Origin: Candidatus Poribacteria bacterium
GTDB taxonomy: Bacteria > Poribacteria > WGA-4E > WGA-3G
Assembly: GCA_028824125.1 (NCBI GenBank)
Contig: JAPPES010000080.1
Span: 580-64,579 of the forward strand
Reading direction: 5' to 3'
DNA length: 64,000 nt
Shown here piece by piece: positions 1,577 to 52,451 of the stretch. The notes below the pieces were generated by a model. That model made no database searches and was not told the origin of the DNA. It saw only the letters and a list, made by a program, of their open reading frames with translations. Numbering within the stretch: the first letter of the stretch is position 1; each line of letters starts with the position of its first letter. A program made the position numbers and the translations under genes.

Positions 1577-2918
1577 TTACTCTAGGACCCCCATTGCATC
1601 CTGTAAGCGTGTTCGCGCAATTTTATAATCGTAAAATGTATTCACCCGATTTGTCAATGCTTGCGCGTAACTTGTTTGTGCGTCAAGCGCCTCAAGTGGA
1701 ATCGCTTTTCCGACTTTAAGGCGCCCTTGAACAACATCTAAACTGAGTTTAGCGTTAACTACTTGTGTATTAGAGATTTCTACGGCGGCTTCGCTACGTT
1801 TTAGGTTCAGATAACTTTGTCGTACCCCAAGCGCAACGGAGCGTTCCAAGTCGCTTGCATTTTCGCGTGTTTGTTCCAACTGCATATTAAGTTCCTTGAC
1901 GCGATTACCCAAGATACCACCATCAAAAAGTGTAAAGTTGAGTGATGCACCAACACTCCAACTCCGAAAATCCGAAAAATTTTGACGTTCATGAAGGTAA
2001 TCATCAAGGTTGACGTTATAATTTACGTTTGCGCTCAACTGCGGCCAACGTCGTAATTTTGAAAGTGTCAAACTCCCTTCTTGTTGTTTAATTTGTGCTT
2101 CAGTTTCCTTAAATTCTGGGCGATTTTCAAGCGCTATCTGTATCGCTTCTTCAACAGTGATGTCTATCTTCTCAATAGTTCCACGCTCCAGATACAATTG
2201 GAAGGATTCATCTACTGCTACGGTAATTAGCAGTCCAGGGTCTAAGCCCATAAGACGTGGTAAAGTCGCTTGTGATATCTGGAGCGAATTTTGACTATTG
2301 AGTAATCCCAATTCGTCACTTGTTTCACGGACTCTTGCAGTAGCAACATCTGCGGGGATAAGTACACCTGCTTCCTCTAAAGCTTGGATCTGTTTTGTAT
2401 TATCTCTGGATCGCTCTAATACATCTTCACTCACCTTAACGAGTTCTGTATCTTTAAGGACGTCATAGTACGCTTGTGTAATCTGTAGGATTAAACCCTG
2501 TTTAATTCCCTCATTTCGGTTCGTTGTAACTCTCAAACTCTCTTTTGCCTGTGCGTAATTTACTTCACGTTGTCCATTATCCCAAAGCGTATAACGTCCT
2601 GTCAATCCTAAATCGTAGTTTTCTCGTTCAAAACCGAAATCTAAACGGTCAGAGAAATCATATCGACCAGAAGAAGTAATTGTCGGAAAATAACCGGCAC
2701 GTGCATTTTTTAAACGTAACTCCTGAATAGCAAGACTCAACCGTGCATTTCGCATACTCGTTGCTTTTTCTAACCCCATTTGAATACACTGTTCAAGTGT
2801 TAACGGTTGAGACAGGTCAATTTCTGTTGGCTCTTGTGCATCCGCACAAAGAATTACCATAAACTGAAGACTAAACAGGATAAACGTAAACCCAATTCCC
2901 CATCGAAGCATTAGCATC
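1577..2918 (-). CDS. TolC-family outer membrane efflux protein
   Basis: The 484-aa track ORF is dominated by outer-membrane-factor alpha-helical repeats (LTLEQCIQMGLEKATSMRNARLSLAIQELRLKNARAGYFPTITSSGRYD...). I prefer the start at ATG 2916-2918 (MLMLRWGIGFTFILFSLQFMVILCADA, a signal peptide) with an AAGGAG RBS 6 nt upstream. The track start at 3031 would add 38 aa with no signal peptide. Confidence 0.8.
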
Positions 2919-2970
2919 TCCTTAAAACTTATATCATGGAAGATTGTAATCTTAATAGGACTTACGTATG

Positions 2971-2997
2971 CTGTTCTTTTGTAGCATAACCTGTTAG
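2971..2997. repeat. Host palindrome P variant (GTAGCATAACCTGTTAGGTTGTGCCAC) in the tolC leader
   Basis: Imperfect inverted repeat, gcataacct / aggttgtgc. It belongs to the GCACAAACTG...CAGTTTGTGC family seen about 8 times in this window. Confidence 0.5.
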
Positions 2998-3272
2998 GTT
3001 GTGCCACAAAAACGTCTCTGTTTTTTACCACGCTCCATCGGACAGAGTGGCATACGGGTCAAAATTACGTAAGTCCTGCTTAAACAAGCCTTTAAATTTT
3101 TTTGACAATAACGAATTGTAAAAGTTCAGCATAAATTTTCGTTAAATTTTTTGATAAAGTATATCGGCAATTTTGACGCAAATCAAGTATAAAAGTTTAG
3201 TCATTCTTCAGTGGTAATGAGATTACAAGGGTTTGTAAAGTTTTGGCACTGATTATCTTTTAGGAATTTAAC

Positions 3273-3301
3273 TTGACAAACCAATCTATTTATGTTAATA
3301 T
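3273..3301 (+). promoter_or_regulatory. sigma70-like promoter candidate (TTGACA-N17-TAATAT)
   Basis: ttgaca at 3273-3278, a 17-nt spacer, taatat at 3296-3301. It sits in the 780-bp AT-rich divergent region between tolC and trpA, about 90 nt upstream of the GACGTG repeat array. Confidence 0.3.
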
Positions 3302-4801: not shown

Positions 4802-5407
4802 ATGGCTTATAGCAATTTCACTTTACAAGCAGCACAAAAAACGTTTCAATTAGAAATAGTTCAGTCTATAGGTATCTTTGCCGAAACAGAGTTGGTGGAG
4901 CCGAGTTCGGAACTCATCAAGGCGTTGGCAAAGAAGGTCCCGTTAGCCGTTGCAATAGGTACAGAGAAGGCAAAGTCAGAAATGATTGTCGCCGATATAC
5001 TTGTTGAACTCCGAGAACATTTTGAGCACCGTATTAGTCTCTTTTCGGGTATTGATTTTAATGTTGACACTGAAAATGATTTGACTGGTGTGTGTGATTT
5101 TTTGGTGAGTCTATCTCCAAACCAGTACTATTTGGAATCTCCTGTTATTATCCTTGTTGAAGCTAAGAAAGACGACCTCATAACAGGCCTCGGGCAATGC
5201 GTAGCGGAGATGATCGCTGCGCAACGCTTTAATACCGAACAAGAGAACGACATTTCACGTGTTTATGGGGCTACCACAACGGGGACGCATTGGCTCTTCC
5301 TCAAATTGGAAGGCAAGCGACTCCACATTGACATGGAAACTTATATGCTTGAACGATGTGACAGAATTCTCGGTATTCTTGCAAGCATGGTAGCACAAAA
5401 AGTATGA
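4802..5407 (+). CDS. Hypothetical protein, probably PD-(D/E)xK nuclease fold (HsdR-N-terminal-like)
   Basis: A 201-aa ORF from ATG 4802 with a GGAGGA RBS 10 nt upstream. It contains D...VEAKK (ILVEAKKDDLITGLGQ), which resembles the E-x-K core of restriction-endonuclease-like domains. The track's GTG start at 4727 abuts the trpA stop and adds 25 hydrophobic residues. Assignment is by motif memory only. Confidence 0.45.
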   Translation: MAYSNFTLQAAQKTFQLEIVQSIGIFAETELVEPSSELIKALAKKVPLAVAIGTEKAKSEMIVADILVELREHFEHRISLFSGIDFNVDTENDLTGVCDFLVSLSPNQYYLESPVIILVEAKKDDLITGLGQCVAEMIAAQRFNTEQENDISRVYGATTTGTHWLFLKLEGKRLHIDMETYMLERCDRILGILASMVAQKV

Positions 5408-5483
5408 AGTCCACAACTTTGCTGTGAGACTTTTCCTTGTATCCGCGTTAATTTTGTGTAATCCGGGATTGAAAAAAGAATAA

Positions 5484-8462: not shown

Positions 8463-8626
8463 TTCTTAATTATCCATCAAAAATCATACGGTAGCAATTA
8501 GACATTATAACTTTTTAATTGTGAATTGTAATCGGTCTTTTATAAAATCTAAAGTTCGTCCGTCGGGTTTCGCTGTGTTCTGTCCTTATGTGTCAATTTA
8601 AGGATTTTCCGAATGTGTGTCCTGCT

Positions 8627-8800
8627 CTTCAGTCCCGTAGGGACGATATGTTTATAGTAGCTCGTGCTATCCCTACTCTCTTAGTCCCGTAGGGACGAAA
8701 TGTTTTCGCAGCACATTGGCAGTTGATATGTCGTTCCTACGGAACTCAAGAGGTGTTGATAATTTTTTCTATAAACATAGCGTTCCTATGGAACTCAAGA
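8627..8800. repeat. MITE family 1 core (double-hairpin GTCCCGTAGGGACGATATGT element), copy lacking clear TIRs
   Basis: Two direct copies of (c)ttagtcccgtagggacga(t/a)atgt are followed by two inverted copies, acatatcgtccctacgggact-like. The same architecture recurs at 14753-15009, 33631-33710 and 52141-52405. Confidence 0.7.
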
Positions 8801-13180: not shown

Positions 13181-14584
13181 ATGACCCGTTACACCCTTGA
13201 TTTCGTTCTAAGCATAAACCGAAGCTATCTTATTATTCTCATACTCGGCATGTTTGCGATAACATATATCGGTTGCGTAGGCGGCGTTGACATCGTACCA
13301 CTGAGTGCGAAAATTCAAAACGCTGATAATGCCTTTGATGAAGCAGAAGCCGTTTCTACCCGGTCAGATGACCCAGAAGAAAAACGGAAGATACGCGCCA
13401 GGCAGCAAAAAGCTTATGATAGAGCGATGTCCCTTTACCTTGAAGTCATTGCAAAAGACGTTAAAGGAAAATACGCTCAGCGAGCCCACTATCAAATCGC
13501 AAAAATCTACAAGAAGCATTATGAGTGGGATAAAGCAAATGAGCATTATCAAGCAATTATTGAACTTGATCCAACAGGATACTATGCAAGTGAAGCAAAA
13601 AGTAGCCTTTCGAATATTCGCAAGAACCGTGAATTAATTGCGCAGGAACTCGCGAATTATCAAAACTATAAAGCCCTTTATGACATTGAAAAAAGTGATG
13701 AAACCTATGATATTGCCGCAAAGTCGCTCTATAAGGTTGCCCAGGCGTATGAAACATTAGAAAATTTTCCCGAAGCCATCACAACTTTTGAGAGAATGGC
13801 CAAGGAATTTGCAGAGCATCCTCAAGCACCACAAGCGCAATTTCAAGTGGGAAACATCTATTTTTACAAATTGTATGATTACACGAATTCTGGTGGTTGG
13901 GGTGCTTTTATAGCAGTTAACGATAAATTTCCTGACACTTTTGAAGCTCAACAGGTAAAAAGTAAATTGATCGAGGCTAAAGATCTCTTAACTGACATCA
14001 AAAAGTACCAAGATGAAATTCGGCGTTACAGGAGCAAAAAAGCACAAGAATTTGAAAAACTTGGGAGATATGTGCGGCCATCCGAAAAATGGCTGATGGG
14101 AAAAGTCGAACTTGTTGTTCAGCTTTATCAACAAATCGCACGGAACTGGAAAAAACTCCGCCACTATCCATACGCTATCGAAACGTATAAGGAGTTAATA
14201 CGCGATCTTTCACACAAAAAGTTTGCTGTTTCTGATGCGCTATACCAAGTTGGTGCACTTTACCAGCAAAGTGGTCAATACGAACGTGCAATTCAAGCTT
14301 ATGACAATCTGCTTGAAGAGGCACCACAATCCACTTGGCTCAATGAATCTATATATCAACAAGCAGTTTGCTATCGCGCTATTCGTGAATTTGGTTCCGC
14401 TTACAAAGGATTCAAGACATATATGAGCCTCACCAAAGGTGACACTCCCTACTTCCGAGAAGCGGAGCAAATTATCCGTCAGTATGAACTTGACCAAGAC
14501 CAAGACGGTTATAAGTTCTATGAGGAACAGGAAAGTGGCACCTCGGATCAAGACCCAAACTCATATCCTGTCGTAAAAAATTAA
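13181..14584 (+). CDS. Tetratricopeptide-repeat lipoprotein
   Basis: 467 aa. Signal/lipobox ILILGMFAITYIGC. Multiple TPR-like A/Y/L periodicities (AHYQIAKIYKKHYEWDKANEHYQAIIELDP, LYQVGALYQQSGQYERAIQAYDNLLEEAP). Confidence 0.75.
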   Translation: MTRYTLDFVLSINRSYLIILILGMFAITYIGCVGGVDIVPLSAKIQNADNAFDEAEAVSTRSDDPEEKRKIRARQQKAYDRAMSLYLEVIAKDVKGKYAQRAHYQIAKIYKKHYEWDKANEHYQAIIELDPTGYYASEAKSSLSNIRKNRELIAQELANYQNYKALYDIEKSDETYDIAAKSLYKVAQAYETLENFPEAITTFERMAKEFAEHPQAPQAQFQVGNIYFYKLYDYTNSGGWGAFIAVNDKFPDTFEAQQVKSKLIEAKDLLTDIKKYQDEIRRYRSKKAQEFEKLGRYVRPSEKWLMGKVELVVQLYQQIARNWKKLRHYPYAIETYKELIRDLSHKKFAVSDALYQVGALYQQSGQYERAIQAYDNLLEEAPQSTWLNESIYQQAVCYRAIREFGSAYKGFKTYMSLTKGDTPYFREAEQIIRQYELDQDQDGYKFYEEQESGTSDQDPNSYPVVKN

Positions 14585-14627
14585 AGATTTTGGTGATTGA
14601 AACTTCTGTGAAGGTTGAACAGAAGGG

Positions 14628-14651
14628 ATAGCACAAACTGTTAGTTTGTAC
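14628..14651. repeat. Host palindrome P (ATAGCACAAACTGTTAGTTTGTAC), an unoccupied site
   Basis: gcacaaactg / tagtttgt(a)c is an inverted repeat immediately downstream of the TPR gene stop. A half-site gacgcaaactaaag lies at 14659-14676. Confidence 0.6.
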
Positions 14652-14752
14652 TCTATGAGACGCAAACTAAAGTGAACTTTGAAATTATTGGGACACTTTG
14701 ATAAATCTATTTTGGAACATTACGGACAATAGAGGTTGTAGCACAAACTGTA

Positions 14753-15009
14753 TGAAGATTAATTTATTTATTCGGTAATTTTTCATTATGCATATTCGGA
14801 ACATTTTAAGTGATCTTTAGTCCCGTAGGGACGATATGTTTATAGCAGCGCGGACGACCTCATCCCCTTAGTCCCGTAGGGACGATATGTGTCCGCCAAC
14901 GACATATTTTTACATATCGTCCCTACGGGACTGAAGAGGCGTTGTTCAACGTTTTTCTATAAACATATCGTCCCTACAGGACTAAAGAAATTACCGAAAT
15001 ATTTATTTA
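14753..15009. mobile_element. MITE family 1, full-length copy (~257 bp) with TIRs TGAAGATTAATTTATTTATTCGGTAAT / ATTACCGAAATATTTATTTA, inserted in the centre of a P palindrome
   Basis: Left flank tgtagcacaaactgta, right flank gtttgcgctaca. The internal double-hairpin core matches 8627-8800. It is the near-exact reverse complement of 52141-52405 (for example cgatatgtttatagcagcgcggacgacctcat versus atgaggtcgtccgcgctgctataaacatatcg). No ORF. Confidence 0.75.
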
Positions 15010-15055
15010 GTTTGCGCTACAGAGTGTCCCATTAATTGTAGGTTTTACTATAAAT

Positions 15056-15171
15056 AAAGATTAATTTATTTATTCGGTAATTTTCTGTCCAATGCAGGTG
15101 TACCCGCCTGCTGGTGAGGTTTCCTAACCTCGCCACATTACCGATTTATTTTCTTAAACTTCAAACAGTTT
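15056..15171. mobile_element. MITE family 2 copy (TIR ...TTATTCGGTAAT, core hairpin GGTGAGGTT-tcct-AACCTCGCC), flanked by a 28-bp direct duplication
   Basis: gtttgcgctacagagtgtcccattaatt occurs at 15010-15038 and again at 15168-15196 on either side of the element. The stem has a T-G (U-G) wobble. Confidence 0.65.
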
Positions 15172-15212
15172 GCGCTACAGAGTGTCCCATTAATTATATG
15201 TTCACTATACCT

Positions 15213-15364
15213 AACCCAAGTTGCCACCTATTGCGAATGCTCTTGTCCGAGGGGTTTCTAACCCCGATGTATAACAGAAAACATAAGTATCAGCGGAAAT
15301 ACCTTGTTTTTTAGTAAAAAGCAGTGTCCGCCATCTCGAAATCTTGTCCGTAGCAACTTAGGTT
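15213..15364. mobile_element. MITE family 4 copy (~152 bp; TIRs AACCCAAGTTGCCAC / GTAGCAACTTAGGTT)
   Basis: Near-identical to 20272-20427 and 46890-47043. Internal hairpin ggggtttctaacccc. No ORF. Confidence 0.75.
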
Positions 15365-15453
15365 ATAATTATAGGTTTCACTATATCTTTAAAGTAAGTG
15401 AAAAAGAGTACGCAGCAAATCCATCATTTATTTTTGTGACAATAAACGCATTG

Positions 15454-16275
15454 TCACAAAAATAAATGAACACGAGAATGTTCTGCAGTCGGCAATCTTT
15501 TGAAAACTTCTTGCTGGATTAACTCATGTGTATAACGGCGCGAGAAGTGATGTAAGACAATACATTCGCTCTCAAAATGTTCTAACAGAGACGGTAACAT
15601 CTCCAGGTGCAAATGTTTCGTTTTCTTAGCCCGCTCACGATGTTCAGGTGTAATAAAGGTACATTCACAAATCAGCAGTTTACACTGGGTGAGAAGTGGG
15701 TGCGCGTCAAGCGTTATGCCGCATGTATCACCTAAATAAGCAACTAAAGGCAACTGTACCTCGTATGTAATTTCAACACCTGAACGCTTGAGTGCCACAA
15801 TTTCTCTACTTGATAAATCGTGGTATTCGGGTTTCAGTTTTTTGCGAACTTCACAAATCAGATAAGATACAGCCGGAACACTGTGGTTCCCCGGTAGAAT
15901 GTGGGCAATTAAATTTTGCCGAAACGAAATAGAATCACCCGCTTCTACTGGTGTAAGTTGATAACCCCAATTTCGCCCCCCATCTAACGTAGAAATCTTG
16001 TCAAGGATGTTCTTCAATTGCTTGAACCCGCTTAACGGAACGAAGATATTTCCTGGCGGTATTCCAGCAAGCCAACGTTGACTTATATAGATGGGTAATC
16101 CAAAATAGTGATCAAGATGGAAATGTGAAATAAAAACATGGTTCGTCCCGATAAAATGTATTGGGCACCTGCCCAAATCAAAAATTAGATCAAGTTCCTT
16201 TATCCTGATGTAAGTCGCAACAGCTGAACTTGATCTTCCTTCAAGCACCCAATTTCCATATTGTAGCAATGGCAT
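15454..16275 (-). CDS. MBL-fold metallo-hydrolase (RNase Z-like short form)
   Basis: 273 aa. FISHFHLDHYFGLP is the HxHxDH zinc motif of the metallo-beta-lactamase superfamily. Confidence 0.75.
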   Translation of the reverse strand: MPLLQYGNWVLEGRSSSAVATYIRIKELDLIFDLGRCPIHFIGTNHVFISHFHLDHYFGLPIYISQRWLAGIPPGNIFVPLSGFKQLKNILDKISTLDGGRNWGYQLTPVEAGDSISFRQNLIAHILPGNHSVPAVSYLICEVRKKLKPEYHDLSSREIVALKRSGVEITYEVQLPLVAYLGDTCGITLDAHPLLTQCKLLICECTFITPEHRERAKKTKHLHLEMLPSLLEHFESECIVLHHFSRRYTHELIQQEVFKRLPTAEHSRVHLFL

Positions 16276-20271: not shown

Positions 20272-20427
20272 TTAACCTAAGTTGCCACCTATTTGCGAAT
20301 GCTCTTGTCCGAGGGGTTTCTAACCCCGATTAATAACAGAAAACATAAGTATCAGCGGAAATGCCTTGTTTTTTTCGTAAAAAGCAGTGTCCGCTATCTC
20401 GAAATCTTGTCCGTAGCAACTTGAGTT
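20272..20427. mobile_element. MITE family 4 copy, 24 nt upstream of the argS start codon
   Basis: taacctaagttgccacctatttgcgaatgctcttgtccgaggggtttctaacccc...ccgtagcaacttgagtt. Same orientation as the other two copies. Confidence 0.75.
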
Positions 20428-20594
20428 ATTTTATTTTGTCCGCATTTTTTAGTAACCGAATTATATCACAATAGGCATCTCAAGTCAATTTTGTTAACGC
20501 TAAACTAAATAACCCTGAAAAAATCTTGATATTCAAAACAGATTCTGCTAAAATACAGAAAAAAGGCAATACACTGCTAAAGTACACGCTATTT

Positions 20595-25656: not shown

Positions 25657-25818
25657 ATGAAGTTTAAGTTATTAATTCGGTAATGTGGCAAGGTTAGGAA
25701 ACCTTGCCAGCAGCAGGTTTACATCTCTGCTGGTGAGGCGGGGAATGCCTAAATGGCATTCATACCGTTGATTTCTTCCTAACCTTGCCACATTACCCAA
25801 TTTATTTTTTAATCTTCA
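25657..25818. mobile_element. MITE family 2 copy inserted in a P-like palindrome (flanks tgtagcacaatctgta / tttagattgtgca)
   Basis: TIRs tgaagtttaagttattaattcggtaat / attacccaatttattttttaatcttca. Core hairpin ggcaaggtt-aggaa-accttgcc. Confidence 0.7.
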
Positions 25819-26311
25819 TTTAGATTGTGCATTCCTGAACGCAAACGAACAGTTTGCTCTACAAAAATTACTCATACCGAGCGCACGTTAATTTAAAAAA
25901 ATTTAAGGGTAGGTTTCAAGAAACACTACCATTCTTGGAAAATAGAATTTGTGGTATTGCACTAACGTTTTACTATAAACATTACAATCCTGAATGAGAT
26001 GTGTTGTTAGACTTAATATGAGACGCAAATTTGTCGCAAATAAATGAAAGGTTATCAATAAAATTATCCCAACGAAAGTCTTCTTCTTGTGCTTTTGATG
26101 CTGCAAAATACACCGCTAATTCGTAATAACCCAATTTTCTATCATCTAACGGTTGTGTATCAGCAGTCCTTTGTTTTGAATCTTTATACATCATGTACCC
26201 CCTAATGGTTAAAGGTTATCCCTCCTAAACCTTTAACGTCATCCTTAAAAACGAGGTTTCATTTTTTTAGACAAACTAACACTGATTACCCTTGCATCCA
26301 ACTCAAAATTT

Positions 26312-26340
26312 TTGACTTTAGCACATTTTGAAGGTATAAT
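26312..26340 (+). promoter_or_regulatory. sigma70 consensus-like promoter (TTGACT-N17-TATAAT) for glnS-gltX
   Basis: ttgact at 26312-26317, a 17-nt spacer, tataat at 26335-26340. ATG 26369 is preceded by AGGAGG. Confidence 0.45.
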
Positions 26341-26368
26341 TTATTATCATTATTTGCAGGAGGCCTGC

Positions 26369-28111
26369 ATGAATCATCCAAAATCTGACTCAAAAAATAC
26401 CAAAAACAAAACAAATACACAAGAAAACGACAACAATACCTCCGATACAAACTTTATCCGACAAGCAATTGAAGAAGATATAGCAGCAAATAGATTTGAC
26501 GGTAGGGTGCATACTCGCTTTCCCCCAGAACCGAGTGGATACCTCCATATCGGTCATGCCAAAGCTATCTGCATCAGTTTCGGCATCGCCGAAGACTATG
26601 GTGGGCTTTACAACCTCCGTTTTGACGACAGCAATCCCATTACTGAAGAGCACGAATACGTTGAGGCAATCAAACGCGATGTTCATTGGCTCGGATTTGA
26701 TTGGGAAGAACGCGAATTCTACGCCTCCGACTATTTTGAAACACTCTATGAATATGCTGTCAAACTGATAGAAAAAGAGAAAGCTTATGTCTGCGATCTA
26801 ACGCCAGACGAAATGCGCACCTATCGTGGCACTTTAGTAGCGCCCGGCAAAGATAGTCCCTACCGAAATCGCTCTGTTGAAGAAAATCTAACGTTGTTCA
26901 ACGGGATGCGCAACGGCGAATTTCCAGACGGTTCCCGCACCCTCCGTGCAAAAATTGATATGGCAAGCCCAAACCTAAACATGCGCGATCCAGTGATGTA
27001 TCGTGTTCTCCGCGCCCCACACTACCGACACGGAACGAATTGGTGCATCTATCCCACCTACGATTTCACACACGGCCAATCTGATTCCATCGAGGGCGTT
27101 ACGCACTCCTTGTGCGATGTTCAATTTGAAGATCATCGTCCGCTATACGACTGGTTTTTGGAATCGTTGGAAATTTATCAACCGCGACAAATTGAATTTG
27201 CGCGTCTGAACCTCACATACACTGTACTCGGCAAGCGAAAACTCAAAGTTCTTGTTGAGGAAGGACATGTGAATGGATGGGACGATCCAAGGCTTCCCAC
27301 ACTTGCAGGTATGCGCCGCCGAGGTTATACCTCTGAATCTATCCAAAATTTTTGCAATCGCATCGGTGTGTCAAAAGCCGATAATCTCATCGAAATCGGA
27401 CAACTTGAATACTCTATCCGCGATGATCTGAACAGACATGCACCCCGTGTCATGGCTGTTCTCAATCCAGTGAAGGTGATTATTGACAACTATCCAGAAG
27501 GACAGGTTGAGATGCTGGATGCTGACAATAATCCGGAAGATAAAGATGCAGGGACAAGGGAGATCCCGTTTTCACGAGAAATCTATATTGAACGGGAAGA
27601 TTTTATGGAAGACCCACCAAGAAAATTCTATAGATTAGCACCCGGTCGAGAAGTTCGACTAAAGCATGCCTACTATATTACCTGCGAAAACGTTGTTAAA
27701 GATGCAAACACAGGGGAAATCGTTGAGATTCACTGCACCTATGATCCAAAAACGCGTGGTGGGTGGTCGGATGACGGACGGCGAGTGCAAGGCACACTCC
27801 ACTGGGTCTCTGCCGAACATGCCGTTGACGCTGAAGTACGCCTATACGATTCGCTCTTTACTGAACGCGAACCTGAAAATGCTGCGGATGGCACCGACTG
27901 GATTCAATTCCTCAATCCAGATTCATTAGAGATTCTTGGTAATTGTAAAGTTGAACCGAGTCTGGTTGATGCACCGCCTGAAAGTCGATTTCAGTTTCTA
28001 CGGATAGGATACTTTTGCGTAGATCCAGACACAACGGCAGACAAATTAGTATTCAATCGCACAGTACCGCTACGGGATTCCTGGGCAAAAATTCAGAAAG
28101 GACAGAAATGA
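26369..28111 (+). CDS. glnS: Glutamine--tRNA ligase
   Basis: ...[28 protein letters not shown]...[10 protein letters not shown]... is the GlnRS class-I HIGH region. The size (~580 aa) and the C-terminal anticodon-binding beta-barrels fit. I prefer ATG 26369, which has an AGGAGG RBS 6 nt upstream, over the track start 26312. Confidence 0.9.
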
Positions 28112-29568
28112 GCAATACCCTCTCTCCAAATGATCAAGTTAGAGTCCGTATGGCACCGTCTCCCACCGGCTACTTACACATCGGCGGCGCGCGAACGGCT
28201 CTCTTCAATTGGCTGTTTGCCAAACACCATAACGGCAAATTTATCCTCCGAATCGACGATACGGACACGGCACGTTCCACTGATGAATCCATGCACGAGA
28301 TTTACGATGCGTTGAAGTGGTTGAGCATCAATTGGGACGAACATTATGTCCAGTCAGAACGGAGAAATGTCTATGACAGGTACGTCAAGCAATTGCTTGA
28401 AAGCGGCAATGCCTACCACTGCTACTGCACACCTGAAGAACTTGAAGAAATCCGCGCACAGGCTCGTGCCAATAAACAGACCCGTTCCTACGATAGAAGG
28501 TGCCGAAATTTGACGCCTGAAGACGTAGACCGCTTTGTCGCCGAGGGCAGAAAACCGACCGTGCGCATAAAAATGCCCGACATACCAATTCACGTCAATG
28601 ACCTTATTCTCGGTTCACGTAACATTGATCCAGCTACCCTTGAAGACGAGGTGATTGTCCGTTCAAATGGCATGCCGAACTACAATCTCACCTCTATCAT
28701 TGACGATGCAGAGATGCAGATAACGCATGTCATCCGAGGAACAGAACATCTCAATAACACTCCGAAACAGATTGCGATTGCGAATGCGCTTGATCTGAAA
28801 CTTCCCCAATTCGCACACATACCACTCGTGCTTGATGATACTGGAAGAAAACTCAGCAAACGTCACCACGGTGATCTTGTCGCAGTCAACCGCTATCGTG
28901 AGCAGGGGTATCTACCCGAAGCGATGCTCAATTTCGTTGTGAGACTCGGTTGGTCCTATGACGATAAACAGGAAATCTTTTCTGTTGATGAATTGATTGA
29001 AAAATTTGACCTTGCACGGGTCGGCAAAAGTGGTAGTGTGTTTGATATCAAGAAATTAGAGTGGCTCAACTCTCACTATATTAACCAGCTTGATGTATCG
29101 GCACGCACAGACGCAGTAATACCGTTCTGGAAACAAGAAGGTTTGGTAGATTCTACTACAAACCGCGATTGGTTGGAAAACATTGTGGAAGCAGTAGGTG
29201 AACGTCTTACAACATTCCAAGATATTGTTCCACAAACTCGCTATTTCTTTACGGATGATTTTGAGTATGAGTCGAAAGCCGTTAAAAAATGGTGGGGAGG
29301 TTCAGACGAAAAGAAGCAAAAAACCCGTGAGATACTTACAAATCTTGGGCAGATTTTAGAAAAAATCCCTACTTTCGACGTGGAAACGATTGAGTCAGCA
29401 ATTTGGAAATACACTGATGAAAACGACATCAAACGTGTCGCGGCAATGCAGGCATTGCGAATCGCGCTGACAGGAACATCGTTCGGCCCGAGTCTCTTTG
29501 ATATTGTCCTGCTGCTCGGCCAAGATGAAGTTTTCAAGCGGATTCAAAGGGCAATAACTTGCCTATAA
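28108..29568 (+). CDS. gltX: Glutamate--tRNA ligase
   Basis: [39 protein letters not shown]...ILRIDDTD is the GluRS N-terminus. The ATG at 28108 overlaps the glnS stop as ATGA. The track start at 28015 lies inside glnS in another frame. Confidence 0.9.
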
Positions 29569-30025: not shown

Positions 30026-30229
30026 ATTTATAGTGAAATCCGAAAATATGTGGGCATCTTAATGAAAAACAATCCCAACACGCTCGCGCTGGCGAGGCGG
30101 GGAATCATGGCGAACACCTTATGCGTATTCGCCTAAATGGCAAGGTCCCATAGCGATAGCGTGTGGGGAGACTACCGTTGATTTCTTCCGAACCTCATCA
30201 ATGTCCAGGTAATTGTGGTTTTACTATAT
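30026..30229. mobile_element. MITE family 3 copy (TIRs TTATAGTGAAATC / GGTTTTACTATA, extended core)
   Basis: Shares the core ctggcgaggcggggaatcatggcgaa...ccgttgatttcttcc with family 2 copies at 25657 and 35645. Confidence 0.7.
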
Positions 30230-33529: not shown

Positions 33530-33630
33530 TTATTATTCCTAATTTAACGAGTTGTGCTAAATAACTGATTGTTCAATATTGTTTCACAATTAGATAACGT
33601 CCTGTTAGTTTTTATCGTTGGTTGGTTCCT

Positions 33631-33710
33631 TCTTTAGTCCCGTAGGGACGATATGTTTATAGAAAAACGTTGAATACCCTATCTTTAGTCCCGTAGGGAC
33701 GATATGTGTC
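33631..33710. repeat. MITE family 1 fragment (two direct hairpin arms only)
   Basis: ctttagtcccgtagggacgatatgtttatagaaaaacgttgaataccctatctttagtcccgtagggacgatatgt is identical to the left half of 52141-52405. A family 4 terminal fragment (tgtccgtagcaacttgagt) lies at 33806-33826. Confidence 0.6.
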
Positions 33711-33849
33711 CAACATAAAGTTCAATATATGTGAAAACAGGACAAACAAATAGTTAACTAACACAAGTCGTTAATTTAAAAATAGTATCTGCAGGCCTAA
33801 AATTTTGTCCGTAGCAACTTGAGTATATGTGCTTGAAAAATCCTTACAC

Positions 33850-35511: not shown

Positions 35512-35644
35512 AAATCTCTCCGATGATCTAAAAGATATGTTTCATGATATAGGTATTTTTTTCAAATGTCAAGTCAATTATAGAAGGCGTGTAAAGTTTT
35601 TGGTACAGGACTTACCATTCCCCCTTGAATGAAGATAAAAAAAT

Positions 35645-35816
35645 AAATCGGTAATTTGGCAAGGTTAGGAAACCTCACCAGCGGGGGATCTTTTGCTGGC
35701 GAGGCGGGGAATCATGGCGAATACCATACGGGGAATGCCATACGCGCATTCATACCGTTGATTTGGCGTATTCGCCCAATGGCATTCATACCGTTGATTT
35801 CTTCCTAACCTCGCCT
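35645..35816. mobile_element. MITE family 2 copy with extended core
   Basis: aaataaatcggtaatttggcaaggttaggaaacctcacc...ctggcgaggcggggaatcatggcgaa...ccgttgatttcttcctaacctcgcc. Confidence 0.7.
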
Positions 35817-44217: not shown

Positions 44218-44262
44218 TCATAGCAAAGACGTCAATTTTACGAAAACGGTAGGCGCGTTTTG

Positions 44263-44375
44263 ATGAAGATTAATTTATTAATTCGGTAATTTGGAGAAAG
44301 GTCCAGTGCGGTTAGGAAACCGCACCTACCGGGTTTGGGAAGAATTAGAATTACCGAAATATTTATTTAATCTTC
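44263..44375. mobile_element. MITE family 2 copy inserted in the centre of a GGCGCGTTT...AAACGCGCC palindrome
   Basis: Left flank aggcgcgttt(tga), right flank (tgt)aaacgcgccga. An intact paralogous palindrome agcgcgtttacaaaacgcgcct lies at 44415-44436. Core hairpin gtgcggtt-aggaa-accgcac. Confidence 0.7.
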
Positions 44376-44533
44376 ATGTAAACGCGCCGAGTCCAAACTT
44401 CATACACTATAAACAGCGCGTTTACAAAACGCGCCTACCAGGGGTGGAAAACTGCTAATCGACGGCTATAGGTTTAGCGTTGCTCTACCCGACCTACGGA
44501 TTACTTTTTTACAAGGAGGAGATTTTACTTAAA

Positions 44534-46872: not shown

Positions 46873-46889
46873 ATAAATTCTCCTTATGT

Positions 46890-47043
46890 AACCCAAGTTG
46901 CCACCTATTTGCGAATGCTCTTGTCCGAGGGGTTTCTAACCCGGATGTATAACAGAAAACATAAGTATCAGCGGAAATGCCTTGTTTTTTGAGTAAAAAG
47001 CAGTGTCCGCCATCTCGAAATCTTGTCCGTAGCAACTTAGGTT
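46890..47043. mobile_element. MITE family 4 copy abutting the RBS of the amidohydrolase gene
   Basis: aacccaagttgccacctatttgcgaatgctcttgtccgaggggtttctaacccggatg...tccgtagcaacttaggtt. Confidence 0.75.
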
Positions 47044-50463: not shown

Positions 50464-51843
50464 CTAATCAACAAGACTGGGGCCATATCTACTATTCATC
50501 AGAGAACGCAATTCTTCAACAAACTCCTTTTCAGACTCAGCAATATTGTGTAATTCATCTGGATCCTCTTCAAGGTTATACAGTTCCACGAATCCATCAC
50601 TACTGTCTATGAGTTTATGTGTCTGTGTCCGAATGCAAGTGAAATTTCCCAGTCGACTAACCGTTTCTGCACGATGCGTTTCAGTTTCTCCCCGCACCAC
50701 CGGCCCGATTGATTGTCCATCAATATTCTCTAAAATCGGCACTCCTACTAAATCACAAATTGTAGGATTGATGTCAATGAGTTCTACCAACTCATCTGAG
50801 ATACGATTGCCTTCTATTCCCGGTCCTGTTACAATGAGCGGAACCCGCAGCGATGCCTCATAAGCTAAACTTTTGGTATAAAGCCCATGGTCGCCAAGCA
50901 TTTCGCCATGGTCGCTTGAATAGATGATATAGGTGTTTTCAAGCATACCGCGTTCTTCTAATGCACGTAACATGTTACCAATCTGGTCGTCAATCAGTTC
51001 CGTAGCAGCACAATATTGTTGCCGTGTAACCTTAATTTCTTCGGGACTGATATTAATGGTGCGTTTTTTCACCCAGTCCGGTTTGCCTTCCATATTATCT
51101 GTAATAGGAGCAGGCATATCTGCATTGCGATATTTGTTGCCGTATTCCGTGGGCGGATCAAACGGGTCGTGCGGTCCTACAAAACTCACAAATAGGTGCC
51201 ACGGAAAGTCGTCAGGGATATTTTCAATAAACTCAGTTGAACGTCTGCCGATATATGAATCCTCAAAATCCTCAGTCGGAAGCACAGAGTCATAAGAACC
51301 GTTTTTTATCCAACCACCAGAAGAACGGCGATTCCGATAATCTTGATGAAATTTCGCTAACAGTCCTTTTTCTTGTAGATAATGTGTATAGGGGCCAATG
51401 GGTGTTGCGGAGCCGCCAGCATGCATCTTGCCTTCACATTCTTCAGGGTGTGTAAATCCCCAGTTGTAGGTGCGGGGGCGGTCGCCGTATCGACCGTTAT
51501 ATCCATCCGGTTTGGCAAGGTCAAGTTTGCCCACACATCCGACGCGATATCCATGATCTCGGAGCTGCTGATAATATGTTGGGACTGATGTTGGGTAAAA
51601 GCTGCCGTTTCCCAGTGAGCCTAAACGCGAGGGTTGTATTCCCGATGCCAAACCGATCCGTGACGGAGCACAGACTGGAGCATTCACTGTGCAGTTTGGT
51701 AAATTTACGCCCATTTCTGCTAATCTACGTAGGTTCGGTGTGTTGAGCGCATCGGGGGCATTCTCATGCGTTTCCAGATAGTCATATCTGTGCTGGTCTG
51801 ACATGATAAAGAGAATGTTCGGTTTATCAGTTTTTCTGTTCAT
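50464..51843 (-). CDS. Sulfatase (formylglycine-dependent arylsulfatase family)
   Basis: 459 aa. ...NAPVCAPSRIGLASG... is the C-x-P-x-R formylglycine signature. The N-terminal ..ILFIMSDQHR.. metal-binding region fits. No FGE or anSME gene is adjacent. Confidence 0.85.
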   Translation of the reverse strand: MNRKTDKPNILFIMSDQHRYDYLETHENAPDALNTPNLRRLAEMGVNLPNCTVNAPVCAPSRIGLASGIQPSRLGSLGNGSFYPTSVPTYYQQLRDHGYRVGCVGKLDLAKPDGYNGRYGDRPRTYNWGFTHPEECEGKMHAGGSATPIGPYTHYLQEKGLLAKFHQDYRNRRSSGGWIKNGSYDSVLPTEDFEDSYIGRRSTEFIENIPDDFPWHLFVSFVGPHDPFDPPTEYGNKYRNADMPAPITDNMEGKPDWVKKRTINISPEEIKVTRQQYCAATELIDDQIGNMLRALEERGMLENTYIIYSSDHGEMLGDHGLYTKSLAYEASLRVPLIVTGPGIEGNRISDELVELIDINPTICDLVGVPILENIDGQSIGPVVRGETETHRAETVSRLGNFTCIRTQTHKLIDSSDGFVELYNLEEDPDELHNIAESEKEFVEELRSLMNSRYGPSLVD

Positions 51844-52121: not shown

Positions 52122-52140
52122 CTCACAGGCACAATCTAAA

Positions 52141-52405
52141 TGAAGATTTAATAAATATTTCGGTAATTTCTTTAGTCCCGTAGGGACGATATGTTTATAG
52201 AAAAACGTTGAACAACTTCTCTTTAGTCCCGTAGGGACGATATGTCCAAAATATGTCGTTGGCGGACACATATCGTCCCTACGGGACTAATGGAATGAGG
52301 TCGTCCGCGCTGCTATAAACATATCGTCCCTACGGGACTGAAGAGTGCTTAAAATGTTCCGAATATGCATAATGAAAATTACCGAATTAATAAATTAATC
52401 TTCAT
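52141..52405. mobile_element. MITE family 1, full-length copy (~265 bp), reverse orientation relative to 14753-15009
   Basis: TIRs tgaagatttaataaatatttcggtaattt / aaattaccgaattaataaattaatcttca. Flanks (ggcacaatctaaa / tatagattgtgctaca) reconstitute a palindrome. Partial family 3 and family 4 termini lie at 51868-51918 and 52016-52040. Confidence 0.75.
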
Positions 52406-52451
52406 ATAGATTGTGCTACAAGGTGGCAACTAATGTTACTTTAGCAAATAA

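Follow-up and report, generated by a model that had tools for sequence, protein, structure and literature searches.

In a 64-kb stretch of Candidatus Poribacteria DNA (contig JAPPES010000080.1; hereafter the window), the region between a gene for a TPR protein and a convergent gene of the Lactamase_B_2 family holds a block of about 760 bp (14628-15385) made up of short mobile elements. [quoted passage not shown] Two of its constituents, MITE-1 and MITE-2, belong to a family that we call the ATGAAG-TIR family after its terminal inverted repeats (TIRs). Across the related genomes the target of this family is T-n-[N]-n-A at a hairpin apex, of which one base pair is duplicated. Beyond this we propose tentatively, and with slightly less than even confidence, that a lineage of the IS630/Tc1/mariner group gave up its TA target and recognises DNA structure instead, either the tip of an extruded hairpin or cruciform or a comparable symmetric distortion, in almost any sequence, with the ends being joined 1 bp apart. 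Repetitive extragenic palindromes (REPs) and the hairpins of its own MITEs would then serve as gene-safe sites, giving rise to self-propagating nests across Poribacteria and some Chloroflexota.

A first-pass annotation had described the block as a nest of at least four different non-coding elements: an intact "P palindrome", MITE-1 lying within a second such palindrome, MITE-2 bracketed by a long direct repeat, and MITE-4. All these features are present in the sequence, and the description as a nest of non-coding mobile elements holds. They belong to repeat families that recur elsewhere in the window and in more than 100 loci of Candidatus Poribacteria, which are sponge symbionts; thus they are not unique to this locus. 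The boundaries given for MITE-4 were the same as ours, MITE-1 begins one position earlier than the noted 14753, and MITE-2 extends from TIR to TIR over 15054-15164, the noted 15056-15171 having taken in part of a flanking palindrome. The count of four different families was inaccurate: MITE-1 and MITE-2 share their termini and are size classes of one family, and a fifth family, X, and an internal module, Q, have to be added. Also unremarked were a third right end of the X type and the loss of the last 8 nt from the right TIR of MITE-1.

The lineage-specific nature of the block is evident from comparison with orthologous regions (loci fetched from related genomes are designated by L-numbers). 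In Poribacteria RHO2_bin_17 (L053) the flanking genes are 78-86% identical to those of the window at the nucleotide level, and a second orthologous locus, L121, has 82% identity in the TPR protein and 88% in the gene downstream. The intergenic region measures 869 bp in the window, 365 bp in L053 and about 140 bp in L121, which identifies 14628-15385 as inserted DNA. The L121 region is free of repeats, and that of L053 carries a single 191-bp ATGAAG-TIR MITE in a hairpin other than that of the window; hence the comparison of filled with empty sites, which had been suggested as a check, contrasts the nest with one different MITE and with none at all. To the left of the block, 14585-14627 agrees by eye with the sequence following the TPR stop codon of L053 at about 34 of 47 positions; the BLAST alignment of the window to L053 stops at 14608, and the repeat-free L121 spans the same interval.

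MITE-1 and MITE-2 share a 28-bp TIR, ATGAAGATTAA..TCGGTAAT, and on the left side the TIRs of the two agree at 97% over 31 nt. The 8 nt missing from the right TIR of MITE-1 are ATCTTCAT, and the core of MITE-2 holds a GC-rich hairpin, ggtgaggtttcctaacctcgcc. The search pattern ATGAAGATTNA(N9)TCGGTAAT has nine matches in the window against 0.07 expected, and in one genome per GTDB species it recovers at least 118 stretches, nearly all from metagenome-assembled genomes (MAGs) of Candidatus Poribacteria; copies thus share their termini. The few matches outside this group lie in Chloroflexota/Anaerolineae MAGs (L038, L059, L098 and L120) and in Flavobacteriales, Aquimarina (L063 and L114). Three of the former (L038, L059 and L098) have complete elements of 173-293 bp, placed in hairpins of yet other sequences. 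They could reflect horizontal spread among sponge-associated bacteria or mis-binning. The plasmids of PLSDB gave no match. A cyanobacterial origin with Nostoc-like MITEs, which the style of the sequence had first suggested, was rejected on this ground and because the TIR matches are almost exclusively poribacterial. Within the Poribacteria loci 94 TIR-bounded elements could be paired, with a size peak at 114-117 bp and further classes of about 126, 144-160 and 266-278 bp, the last being of the MITE-1 type. Copies of MITE-1 itself are found at 52150-52421 in the window (94% identity), in L042 (93%) and in L062 (82%). The window has five ATGAAG-TIR elements, beginning at 14752, 15054, 25657, 44263 and 52140; all but MITE-2 (15054), which is about 290 nt from the nearest stop codon, lie approximately 20-170 nt from one. 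No orthologous empty site was found for the MITE-1 copy at 52140, as the synteny of L061 ends at 51843.

In L010, a 1242-bp element (2046-3287) ends in these TIRs, and its single open reading frame (ORF) codes for a 384-aa transposase with helix-turn-helix (HTH) and DDE domains. The ORF matches the Pfam families DDE_3 (1.9e-22), HTH_32, HTH_29 and HTH_23, and scores 174.1 bits against the NCBIfam IS630 model NF033545 (cutoff 100). About 20 further independent full-length copies of this insertion sequence (IS) are 1241-1244 bp long; the copies with 28-bp TIRs, found in L010, L102 and L126-L157, have the single-ORF, 1.1-1.3-kb organization of IS630 elements. A protein search recovered 1260 relatives at E <= 1e-20; among the 120 relatives listed most are of 384 aa and many come from contigs about 1241 bp in length, which is what a multi-copy IS would lead one to expect. 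In an alignment of 28 family members D191 and D273 are invariant and E334 is present in at least 90%, together forming the DDE triad. D273 and E334 are spaced by 60 residues (P0001 numbering), which include a predicted K/P-rich coil of about 30 residues, LPQ..KPxPPxWTGKxSKKIGxLAKLP; this coil is a candidate for a structure-reading element in the modelled protein. A sequence search against solved structures detected no relative, and an AlphaFold model of moderate quality (pLDDT 65) has the Mos1 and Sleeping Beauty transposases as its top Foldseek matches in the PDB (E ~3e-5). By sequence the protein is hence an IS630-family transposase, one with a non-canonical target.

As the first-pass annotation had noted, the window itself encodes no such enzyme: tblastn with the cognate transposase found no homologue in it, and Pfam detected no transposase or recombinase domain in the 45 ORFs of the window, each 110 aa or longer, that were scanned or in four more with precomputed Pfam hits. 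This supports its view that mobilisation occurs in trans. We infer that the ATGAAG-TIR MITEs are deletion derivatives of the ~1241-bp IS630-family IS and are moved by it; MITE-1 and MITE-2 are short, non-coding, TIR-bounded and multi-copy, and an autonomous element has the same TIRs. The search for partners proposed at the outset (IS200/IS605, TnpB or REP-associated tyrosine transposases, RAYTs) led to RAYTs for the P palindromes, as described below, and for the TIR-bearing MITEs to the DDE enzyme instead. MITE-1 and MITE-2 as clients of RAYTs, IS200/IS605 or IS1341/TnpB are ruled out by the 28-bp TIRs and this DDE partner; IS200/IS605 and IS1341/TnpB elements lack TIRs, have subterminal hairpins, insert 3' of a defined tetra- or pentanucleotide and depend on a Y1 or TnpB gene. 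We found no paper on the MITEs of Poribacteria.

The flanks of almost every ATGAAG-TIR copy are inverted repeats of each other, in many different sequences. A perfect flank stem of at least 6 bp is present at 69 of 95 elements, as against 0.8% of random positions; 48 of the 69 stemmed elements have exactly two unpaired nucleotides on each side, and the stems comprise 33 distinct loop-proximal hexamers. Position-specific statistics were taken over 122 unique sites. At the position next to the element the same base is found on both sides in 80% of the sites and complementary bases in 9%; at the third position 86% have T to the left of the element and A to its right. Complementarity over positions 4-10 is seen at 70-86% of the sites, compared with 26-42% expected, and these positions contain at most 0.7 bit of sequence information. 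Removal of the element together with 1 nt yields an 18-mer found exactly elsewhere for 34 of 95 sites, removal of the element alone does so for 13, and removal of 2 or 3 additional nucleotides for none. Two long paralogous empty sites (93-95% identity over ~120 nt) show that exactly 1 bp was duplicated. These statistics and empty sites together define the target as T-n-[N]-n-A with a 1-bp duplication. Insertion at, and duplication of, TA was not seen at the 122 sites, and the duplicated base can be any. We also tried to accommodate a TA duplication by shifting the element boundary by 1-3 nt and allowing target-site duplications (TSDs) of 0-3 nt; empty sites are matched only with 1 nt or, less often, with 0. 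Since recognition and duplication of TA have been ascribed to the IS630/Tc1/mariner infraclass as a whole (PMC8533490; PMC5481204), this lineage departs from a defining behaviour of its family.

That the palindromic flanks are pre-existing targets, rather than outer extensions of the TIRs in particular element subfamilies, is clear from several observations. In favour of such an extension, the flanks are always mutual inverted repeats, with the P type being the commonest class. However, the ~20 full-length IS copies with identical transposases, which point to recent insertions, are without exception in hairpin loops, and these are unrelated in sequence; copies with transposases that are 61-64% identical lie in hairpin loops in two of three cases. 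The diversity of stem hexamers and the low information per position in spite of strong complementarity are likewise not those of a TIR; the element-adjacent base is a direct and not an inverted repeat; and uninterrupted copies of the same hairpins are abundant and also flank RAYT genes independently of any MITE. We consider an origin of the flanks as TIR extensions barely credible. The stem sequence would be free and its complementarity required; thus the enzyme most likely reads structure and not bases, either a cruciform that is extruded or a symmetric apex that bends easily or is unpaired. In one folded example, 44248-44392, the target arms pair at the base of a single long hairpin that includes the MITE (z = -8.8).

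The P palindromes are REPs. The intact P palindrome at 14631-14651, GCACAAACTGTTAGTTTGTAC, has one mismatch to the family pattern tGTAGcacaaact-nnn-agtttgtgc, which has four strict matches in the window against 0.01 expected and many more copies in the fetched loci. They are short hairpins of extragenic DNA, headed by GTAG, and occur singly, as inverted doublets or in arrays; folded as single-stranded DNA the consensus hairpin has -8.6 kcal/mol, and the P-b hairpin reconstituted from the nest -7.2 kcal/mol. The GC-rich target hairpins are also GTAG-headed (gGTAGgcgcggtt...). GTAG/CTAC lies beside 43% of the 122 target sites and 9% of random positions, mostly at exactly 14 nt from the junction; in the P palindromes the head keeps a constant distance of 14 nt to the centre of the hairpin.

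Next to a metagenomic IS copy in L140 is a small Y1 gene, the product of which matches PF01797 (28.2 bits; cutoff 23) and has an HUH motif, ANHVHVV, as well as an ESYDH motif. Candidatus Poribacteria have homologues of it that are 219-224 aa long, and distant ones have been named "REP element-mobilizing transposase RayT" by JGI. RAYT genes have GTAG-headed P hairpins (tGTAGcgcaaactgttagtttgcg) on both sides in L163 (chromosome OZ242315.1), L159 and L161. In L163 there are six hairpins upstream (120-345) and eight downstream (1048-1350) of rayt, in tandem with a period of ~42 bp. Thus, RAYT genes flanked by the same REPs are found in related genomes, and the window has no RAYT. By these features the P palindromes are the GTAG-headed REPs of Poribacteria, associated elsewhere with RAYTs. 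Two side observations concern these genes: the last codons of the L163 rayt run into the first hairpin, and a REP doublet (REPIN-like, ~59 nt) lies inside the RAYT-like Y1 coding sequence at L140 211-269 and L162 795-843. In L140 the doublet is in frame and adds ~20 residues between the HUH motif and the next helix. For a RAYT-dependent mobilisation of REPs or REPINs these doublets are indirect evidence at most.

The long direct repeat around MITE-2 is explained by a family that had gone unrecognised. BLAST of the flanking sequences against the fetched loci revealed the X family, with termini TATAGT...ACTATA, a left arm TATAGTGAACTTTGAAATTATTGGGACACTTTG... and a right arm GAAGTGTCCCATTAATTGTAGGTTTTACTATA. 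Its core is an inverted REP doublet: P-a, tgtagcacaaact-gtt-agtttgtgca, a spacer and P-b, cgcaaact-aac-agtttgcgctaca. The nest contains two such copies, an outer one, X0, and an inner one, X1; the inverted repeat 14668-14700 / 15020-15052 represents the terminal regions of X1. Both arms of X1 align with X copies in L080, L008, L068 and L012, in all of which ACAGTTTGCGCTACAGAAGTGTCCCATTAATTGTAGGTTTTACTATA, consisting of the right arm of P-b and the right arm of the element, is one contiguous internal segment. The direct repeat had been given as 28 bp; it is real and perfect over 29 nt (15009-15037 and 15167-15195), extending to 44 nt at 91% identity (15009-15052 and 15167-15209). By alignment its two copies are a single internal part of X, the right arm of the REP followed by the right TIR arm, which is met once in X1 and once in X0. 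Removal of X1 and MITE-2, with one additional base, leaves an X0 that is colinear with the X family and has the canonical loop cgcaaactaacagtttgcg restored. MITE-1, for its part, was correctly placed within a P palindrome, its flanks tgtagcacaaactgt and gtttgcgctaca (14737-14751 and 15010-15021) being the REP arms of X1. X1 keeps only the left arm of P-a and the right arm of P-b, from which a deletion of about 45 nt is inferred.

The first-pass annotation had interpreted the repeat as an unusually long TSD left by a replicative or repair-associated insertion of MITE-2. Its perfection over 29 nt, its close bracketing of MITE-2 and a repeat of 22-23 nt around MITE-4 would be in keeping with this, as would the 16 nt, tactataaataaagat, that separate the 36-nt first copy from MITE-2 (15045-15053 being the last 8 nt of X1 and one A). 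Against it, a 1-bp duplication and in no case a long one is seen at 122 other insertions of the family, which excludes a TSD of this length; the repeated segment is an internal part of X in four other genomes; ahead of the first copy lies the remainder of a complete X, including its left arm, which a TSD would not leave; and the left flank of MITE-2 is the X1 terminus ...ACTATA-a and not the repeat. A long TSD is accordingly extremely improbable.

A tandem duplication or unequal recombination of a single X::MITE unit (14752-15053 and 15054-15211), followed by replacement of one core through gene conversion, is a less remote alternative that we nonetheless regard as improbable. The two units begin with 31 nt at 97% and end with 44 nt at 91% identity, and X-core tandem arrays do exist in L079. 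Neither the complete, TA-bounded X left arm, which has the P-b left arm directly on one side and the first unit directly on the other, nor the two entirely different cores would be explained in this way, and removal of 14668-15053 leaves a canonical REP loop with a MITE, as in L080, where an X copy holds in that loop an element of the MITE-2 type with 85% identity over 15051-15209. Nesting of X1 in X0 accounts for these features. L015 has one full instance of the architecture REP left arm, TATAGT-type element, a, ATGAAG MITE, REP right arm (5132-5409) and another from which the REP right arm is missing (2378-2639).

Two further observations touch on X. The abutment ...ACTATA-a-ATGAAG is found at five places in four genomes (window 15052/15054; L088 6589/6590; L015 2494/2496 and 5262/5264; L079 7270/7271); either the two families share a preference for one REP-loop TA, or they move together as a composite. 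At L079 7040-7260, X cores (REP doublet and part of each arm) are in tandem with a period of ~96 bp, giving three direct copies of acagtttgcgttacagtgtctcattaat and hence the same kind of long flank repeat as around MITE-2.

With X0 and X1 distinguished, the order of events in the nest may be reconstructed. X0 would have been present first and carried, or then received, MITE-2 in the loop of its second REP; a complete X1, with MITE-1 in its own REP, would then have inserted at the TA of the same X0 loop; MITE-4 and a further X-type end adjoin. By analogy with its family, the 384-aa transposase would bind the 28-bp TIRs through its HTH domains and move both IS and MITEs by cut-and-paste. The captured target would consist of two-fold symmetric arms closed by T...A around three central base pairs, that is, a stem of ~7-10 bp of almost any sequence with a 3-nt loop, the central base pair of which is duplicated, so that two unpaired nucleotides remain on each side after insertion. 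MITE cores themselves hold hairpins; each insertion would thus make new targets and nests would grow, and insertion in REP loops downstream of genes would be gene-safe.

MITE-4 is unrelated to these families. It has copies at 20273-20429 (94%) and 46889-47043 (97%) in the window, and its family generates a 5-bp TSD: at the site corresponding to the copy at 20273, L053 is empty and has ATTTT only once, and the copy at 46889 is flanked by TATGT. For both MITE-4 and X, TIRs and multiple copies are evident, and no autonomous partner was found. The copy of MITE-4 in the nest is without a TSD and is bracketed by an imperfect direct repeat of 22-23 nt with an X-type terminus (15191-15212 / 15366-15388), of which a third, truncated X copy is the simplest source. 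Several insertion orders for this repeat were tried on paper and none reproduces the junctions.

Q, four gtcccgtagggacgatatgt hairpins within MITE-1, also occurs without ATGAAG TIRs at 8623-8800 and 33630-33711, and is itself a target, since L056 has a 115-bp MITE in one Q hairpin. As a separate observation, a module ggggaatgcc...ggcattcataccgttgatttcttcctaacctcgcc is common to the ATGAAG MITE 25657-25819, the TATAGT MITE 30029-30228 and a degenerate element at 35630-35815; core modules are therefore shuffled between MITE families whose termini differ.

Could the nest be an artefact of assembly, a chimeric path through repeats? The sole independent assembly that we found, the k-mer-based Logan assembly of SRR10996927 from the same sample, carries the flanking genes at 100% identity and breaks inside the repeats, with L001 ending at window position 14700 and L002 starting at 15338, and no second assembly spans the interior. 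On the other hand, every junction obeys rules derived from independent sites (TA for X; T-n-N/N-n-A for ATGAAG), the same architectures are seen in closed or long-read Poribacteria genomes (L015, L079 and L080), and the longest exact internal repeat, 29 nt, is too short to collapse the usual assembly graphs. An artefact is thus very improbable.

Several points weigh against nested insertion at hairpin apices as set out here. The interior of the nest is supported by the window assembly only. At least one deletion must be assumed to account for the incomplete REP of X1 and the truncated right TIR of MITE-1. X0 has no left arm, the DNA being native up to 14627, so that it is either truncated or consists only of a REP doublet and an X right arm; a left arm within 14585-14627 was considered and rejected, as this stretch matches the L053 sequence after the TPR stop. 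The bracket around MITE-4, which lacks a TSD, can be explained by nesting only through the postulated third X. No autonomous copy or empty site of X was found: eight pairs of X/TATAGT termini lie 1.0-2.0 kb apart and none encloses a transposase, TATAGT-type elements have no palindromic flanks, and the TA duplication by X is assumed from the invariant TA at both ends. As for the ATGAAG-TIR elements, about 20% of the sites are without the 1-bp duplication and one long paralogous empty site shows 0 bp duplicated; the empty sites that indicate this duplication are paralogous and not isogenic.

The features of the nest and its surroundings are collected in Table 1. The perfect 20-nt inverted repeat just outside the nest looks like a bidirectional terminator between the convergent genes. 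An Rfam scan of the window detected no family at the gathering threshold. Elsewhere in the window, 26312-28111 and 28015-29568 are adjacent, slightly overlapping class-I Glu/Gln-tRNA synthetase paralogues, one with C-terminal domains of the glutaminyl-tRNA synthetase type and the other with an anticodon-binding domain of the glutamyl-tRNA synthetase type.

Table 1. Coordinates of the nested elements, the neighbouring genes and related repeats in the window
Feature	Position	Strand	Basis
TPR gene	13181-14584	+	Pfam TPR families
Native intergenic DNA after TPR stop (14584)	14585-14627		Alignment to L053, L121
X0 part A, outer X-family copy, 5'-truncated: P-a hairpin, spacer, P-b left arm	14628-14667	+	Colinear with X core
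P-a REP hairpin, intact (P palindrome of the first-pass annotation)	14628-14655	+	Pattern match 14631-14651
P-b REP left arm cgcaaac of X0	14661-14667	+	Second REP of X0
X1, inner complete X MITE (TAAAGTGAAC...TTTTACTATA), at TA of X0 P-b loop	14668-15052	+	Arms align with other X copies
X1 left arm	14668-14736	+	Aligned with L080, L008, L068, L012
X1 REP left arm	14737-14751	+	Flank tgtagcacaaactgt of MITE-1
MITE-1, 258 bp, in X1 REP loop	14752-15009	+	Left TIR 14752-14779, 0 mismatches
Q module in MITE-1, 4 copies of agtcccgtagggacgatatgt	14814-14988	+	Repeat search
X1 REP right arm	15010-15021	+	Flank gtttgcgctaca of MITE-1
X1 right TIR arm	15022-15052	+	Aligned with other X copies
Single A between X1 and MITE-2	15053		Sequence
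MITE-2, 111 bp, in X0 P-b loop	15054-15164	+	TIR matches 15054-15081 (+), 15137-15164 (-)
X0 part B: P-b right arm (15165-15179) and X right TIR arm (15180-15209)	15165-15209	+	Second copy of duplicated flank
MITE-4 (AACCCAAGTTGCC...GCAACTTAGGTT), unrelated family, without TSD	15213-15364	+	Copies elsewhere in window
Solo right end, X/TATAGT type (ataattataggtttcactata)	15365-15385	+	Direct-repeat families
Perfect 20-nt inverted repeat TCATTTATTTTTGTGACAAT / ATTGTCACAAAAATAAATGA, overlaps Lactamase_B_2 stop codon	15424-15469		Inverted-repeat pair
Lactamase_B_2 gene	15454-16275	-	Convergent with TPR gene
Shared ggggaatgcc module	25739-25789, 30090-30199, 35729-35815		Internal repeat

In its HTH and DDE_3 domains, its TIRs of ~28 bp and its predicted Mos1/Sleeping Beauty-like fold the ATGAAG-TIR family resembles the IS630/Tc1/mariner elements and their MITEs (Correia, RUP and Stowaway-type). 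Abundant short deletion derivatives that share the TIRs of a ~1.2-kb IS and are mobilised in trans are likewise a feature of IS630 MITEs. Unlike in IS630/Tc1/mariner, there is here neither a TA target nor a TA duplication, with 1 bp of any base at the T-n-[N]-n-A hairpin apex being duplicated instead. Insertion into REPs is a trait shared with the ISs that target REPs or palindromic units, namely IS1397 and ISKpn1 of the IS3 family, IS621, ISPa11 and ISPpu9/10 of IS110, and ISRm22 of IS4. For IS1397 the insertion point is the loop of the palindromic unit. The IS3, IS110, IS4, IS256 and IS5 families have documented cases of REP targeting (PMC1525189), and the IS630 family to which the present transposase belongs is absent from these; our literature searches gave no IS630-family case of hairpin or REP targeting. 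A further difference from the REP-targeting ISs is that the targets span at least two GTAG-headed REP families and unrelated hairpins, which points to structure or symmetry rather than to one REP sequence, and that MITE derivatives use the same sites as the IS.

The GTAG hairpins that flank a Y1 (PF01797) gene in related Poribacteria parallel the REP/REPIN/BIME-RAYT systems (BIMEs being bacterial interspersed mosaic elements). RAYT genes are flanked on both sides by REPs, and an origin of RAYT/REP within the gammaproteobacteria has been proposed (PMC2817692). In contrast to the systems described there, the host is a member of the Poribacteria, and the REPs receive insertions of a DDE element and form part of the X MITEs. 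As in BIME-like mosaics and in the nested MITEs of plants and cyanobacteria, small non-autonomous elements are stacked and internal modules are common to different families (D10, D16, D17). What sets this case apart from other nested MITE clusters is that the cause of nesting is defined, in that the elements carry the hairpins that are targeted next.

Thus, an apparent anomaly, the 28-bp "TSD", turns out to be the ordinary nesting of a previously unrecognised MITE family, and the result worth pursuing is the target specificity of an IS630-derived family. The TA requirement of IS630/Tc1/mariner is a textbook case, and these enzymes are used as genome-engineering tools. If a natural branch with hairpin tips as its insertion sites and 1 bp duplicated is borne out, it would offer a handle on how transposases read and bend target DNA, and would extend REP targeting to a sixth IS family. 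The REP-RAYT system is also documented here in Poribacteria, outside the proteobacterial lineages in which it was characterised earlier. MITE nests fragment short-read assemblies of Poribacteria; the proposed targeting, if true, would provide a mechanistic reason why MITEs pile up in the intergenic regions of these sponge symbionts and why short-read assemblies break there.

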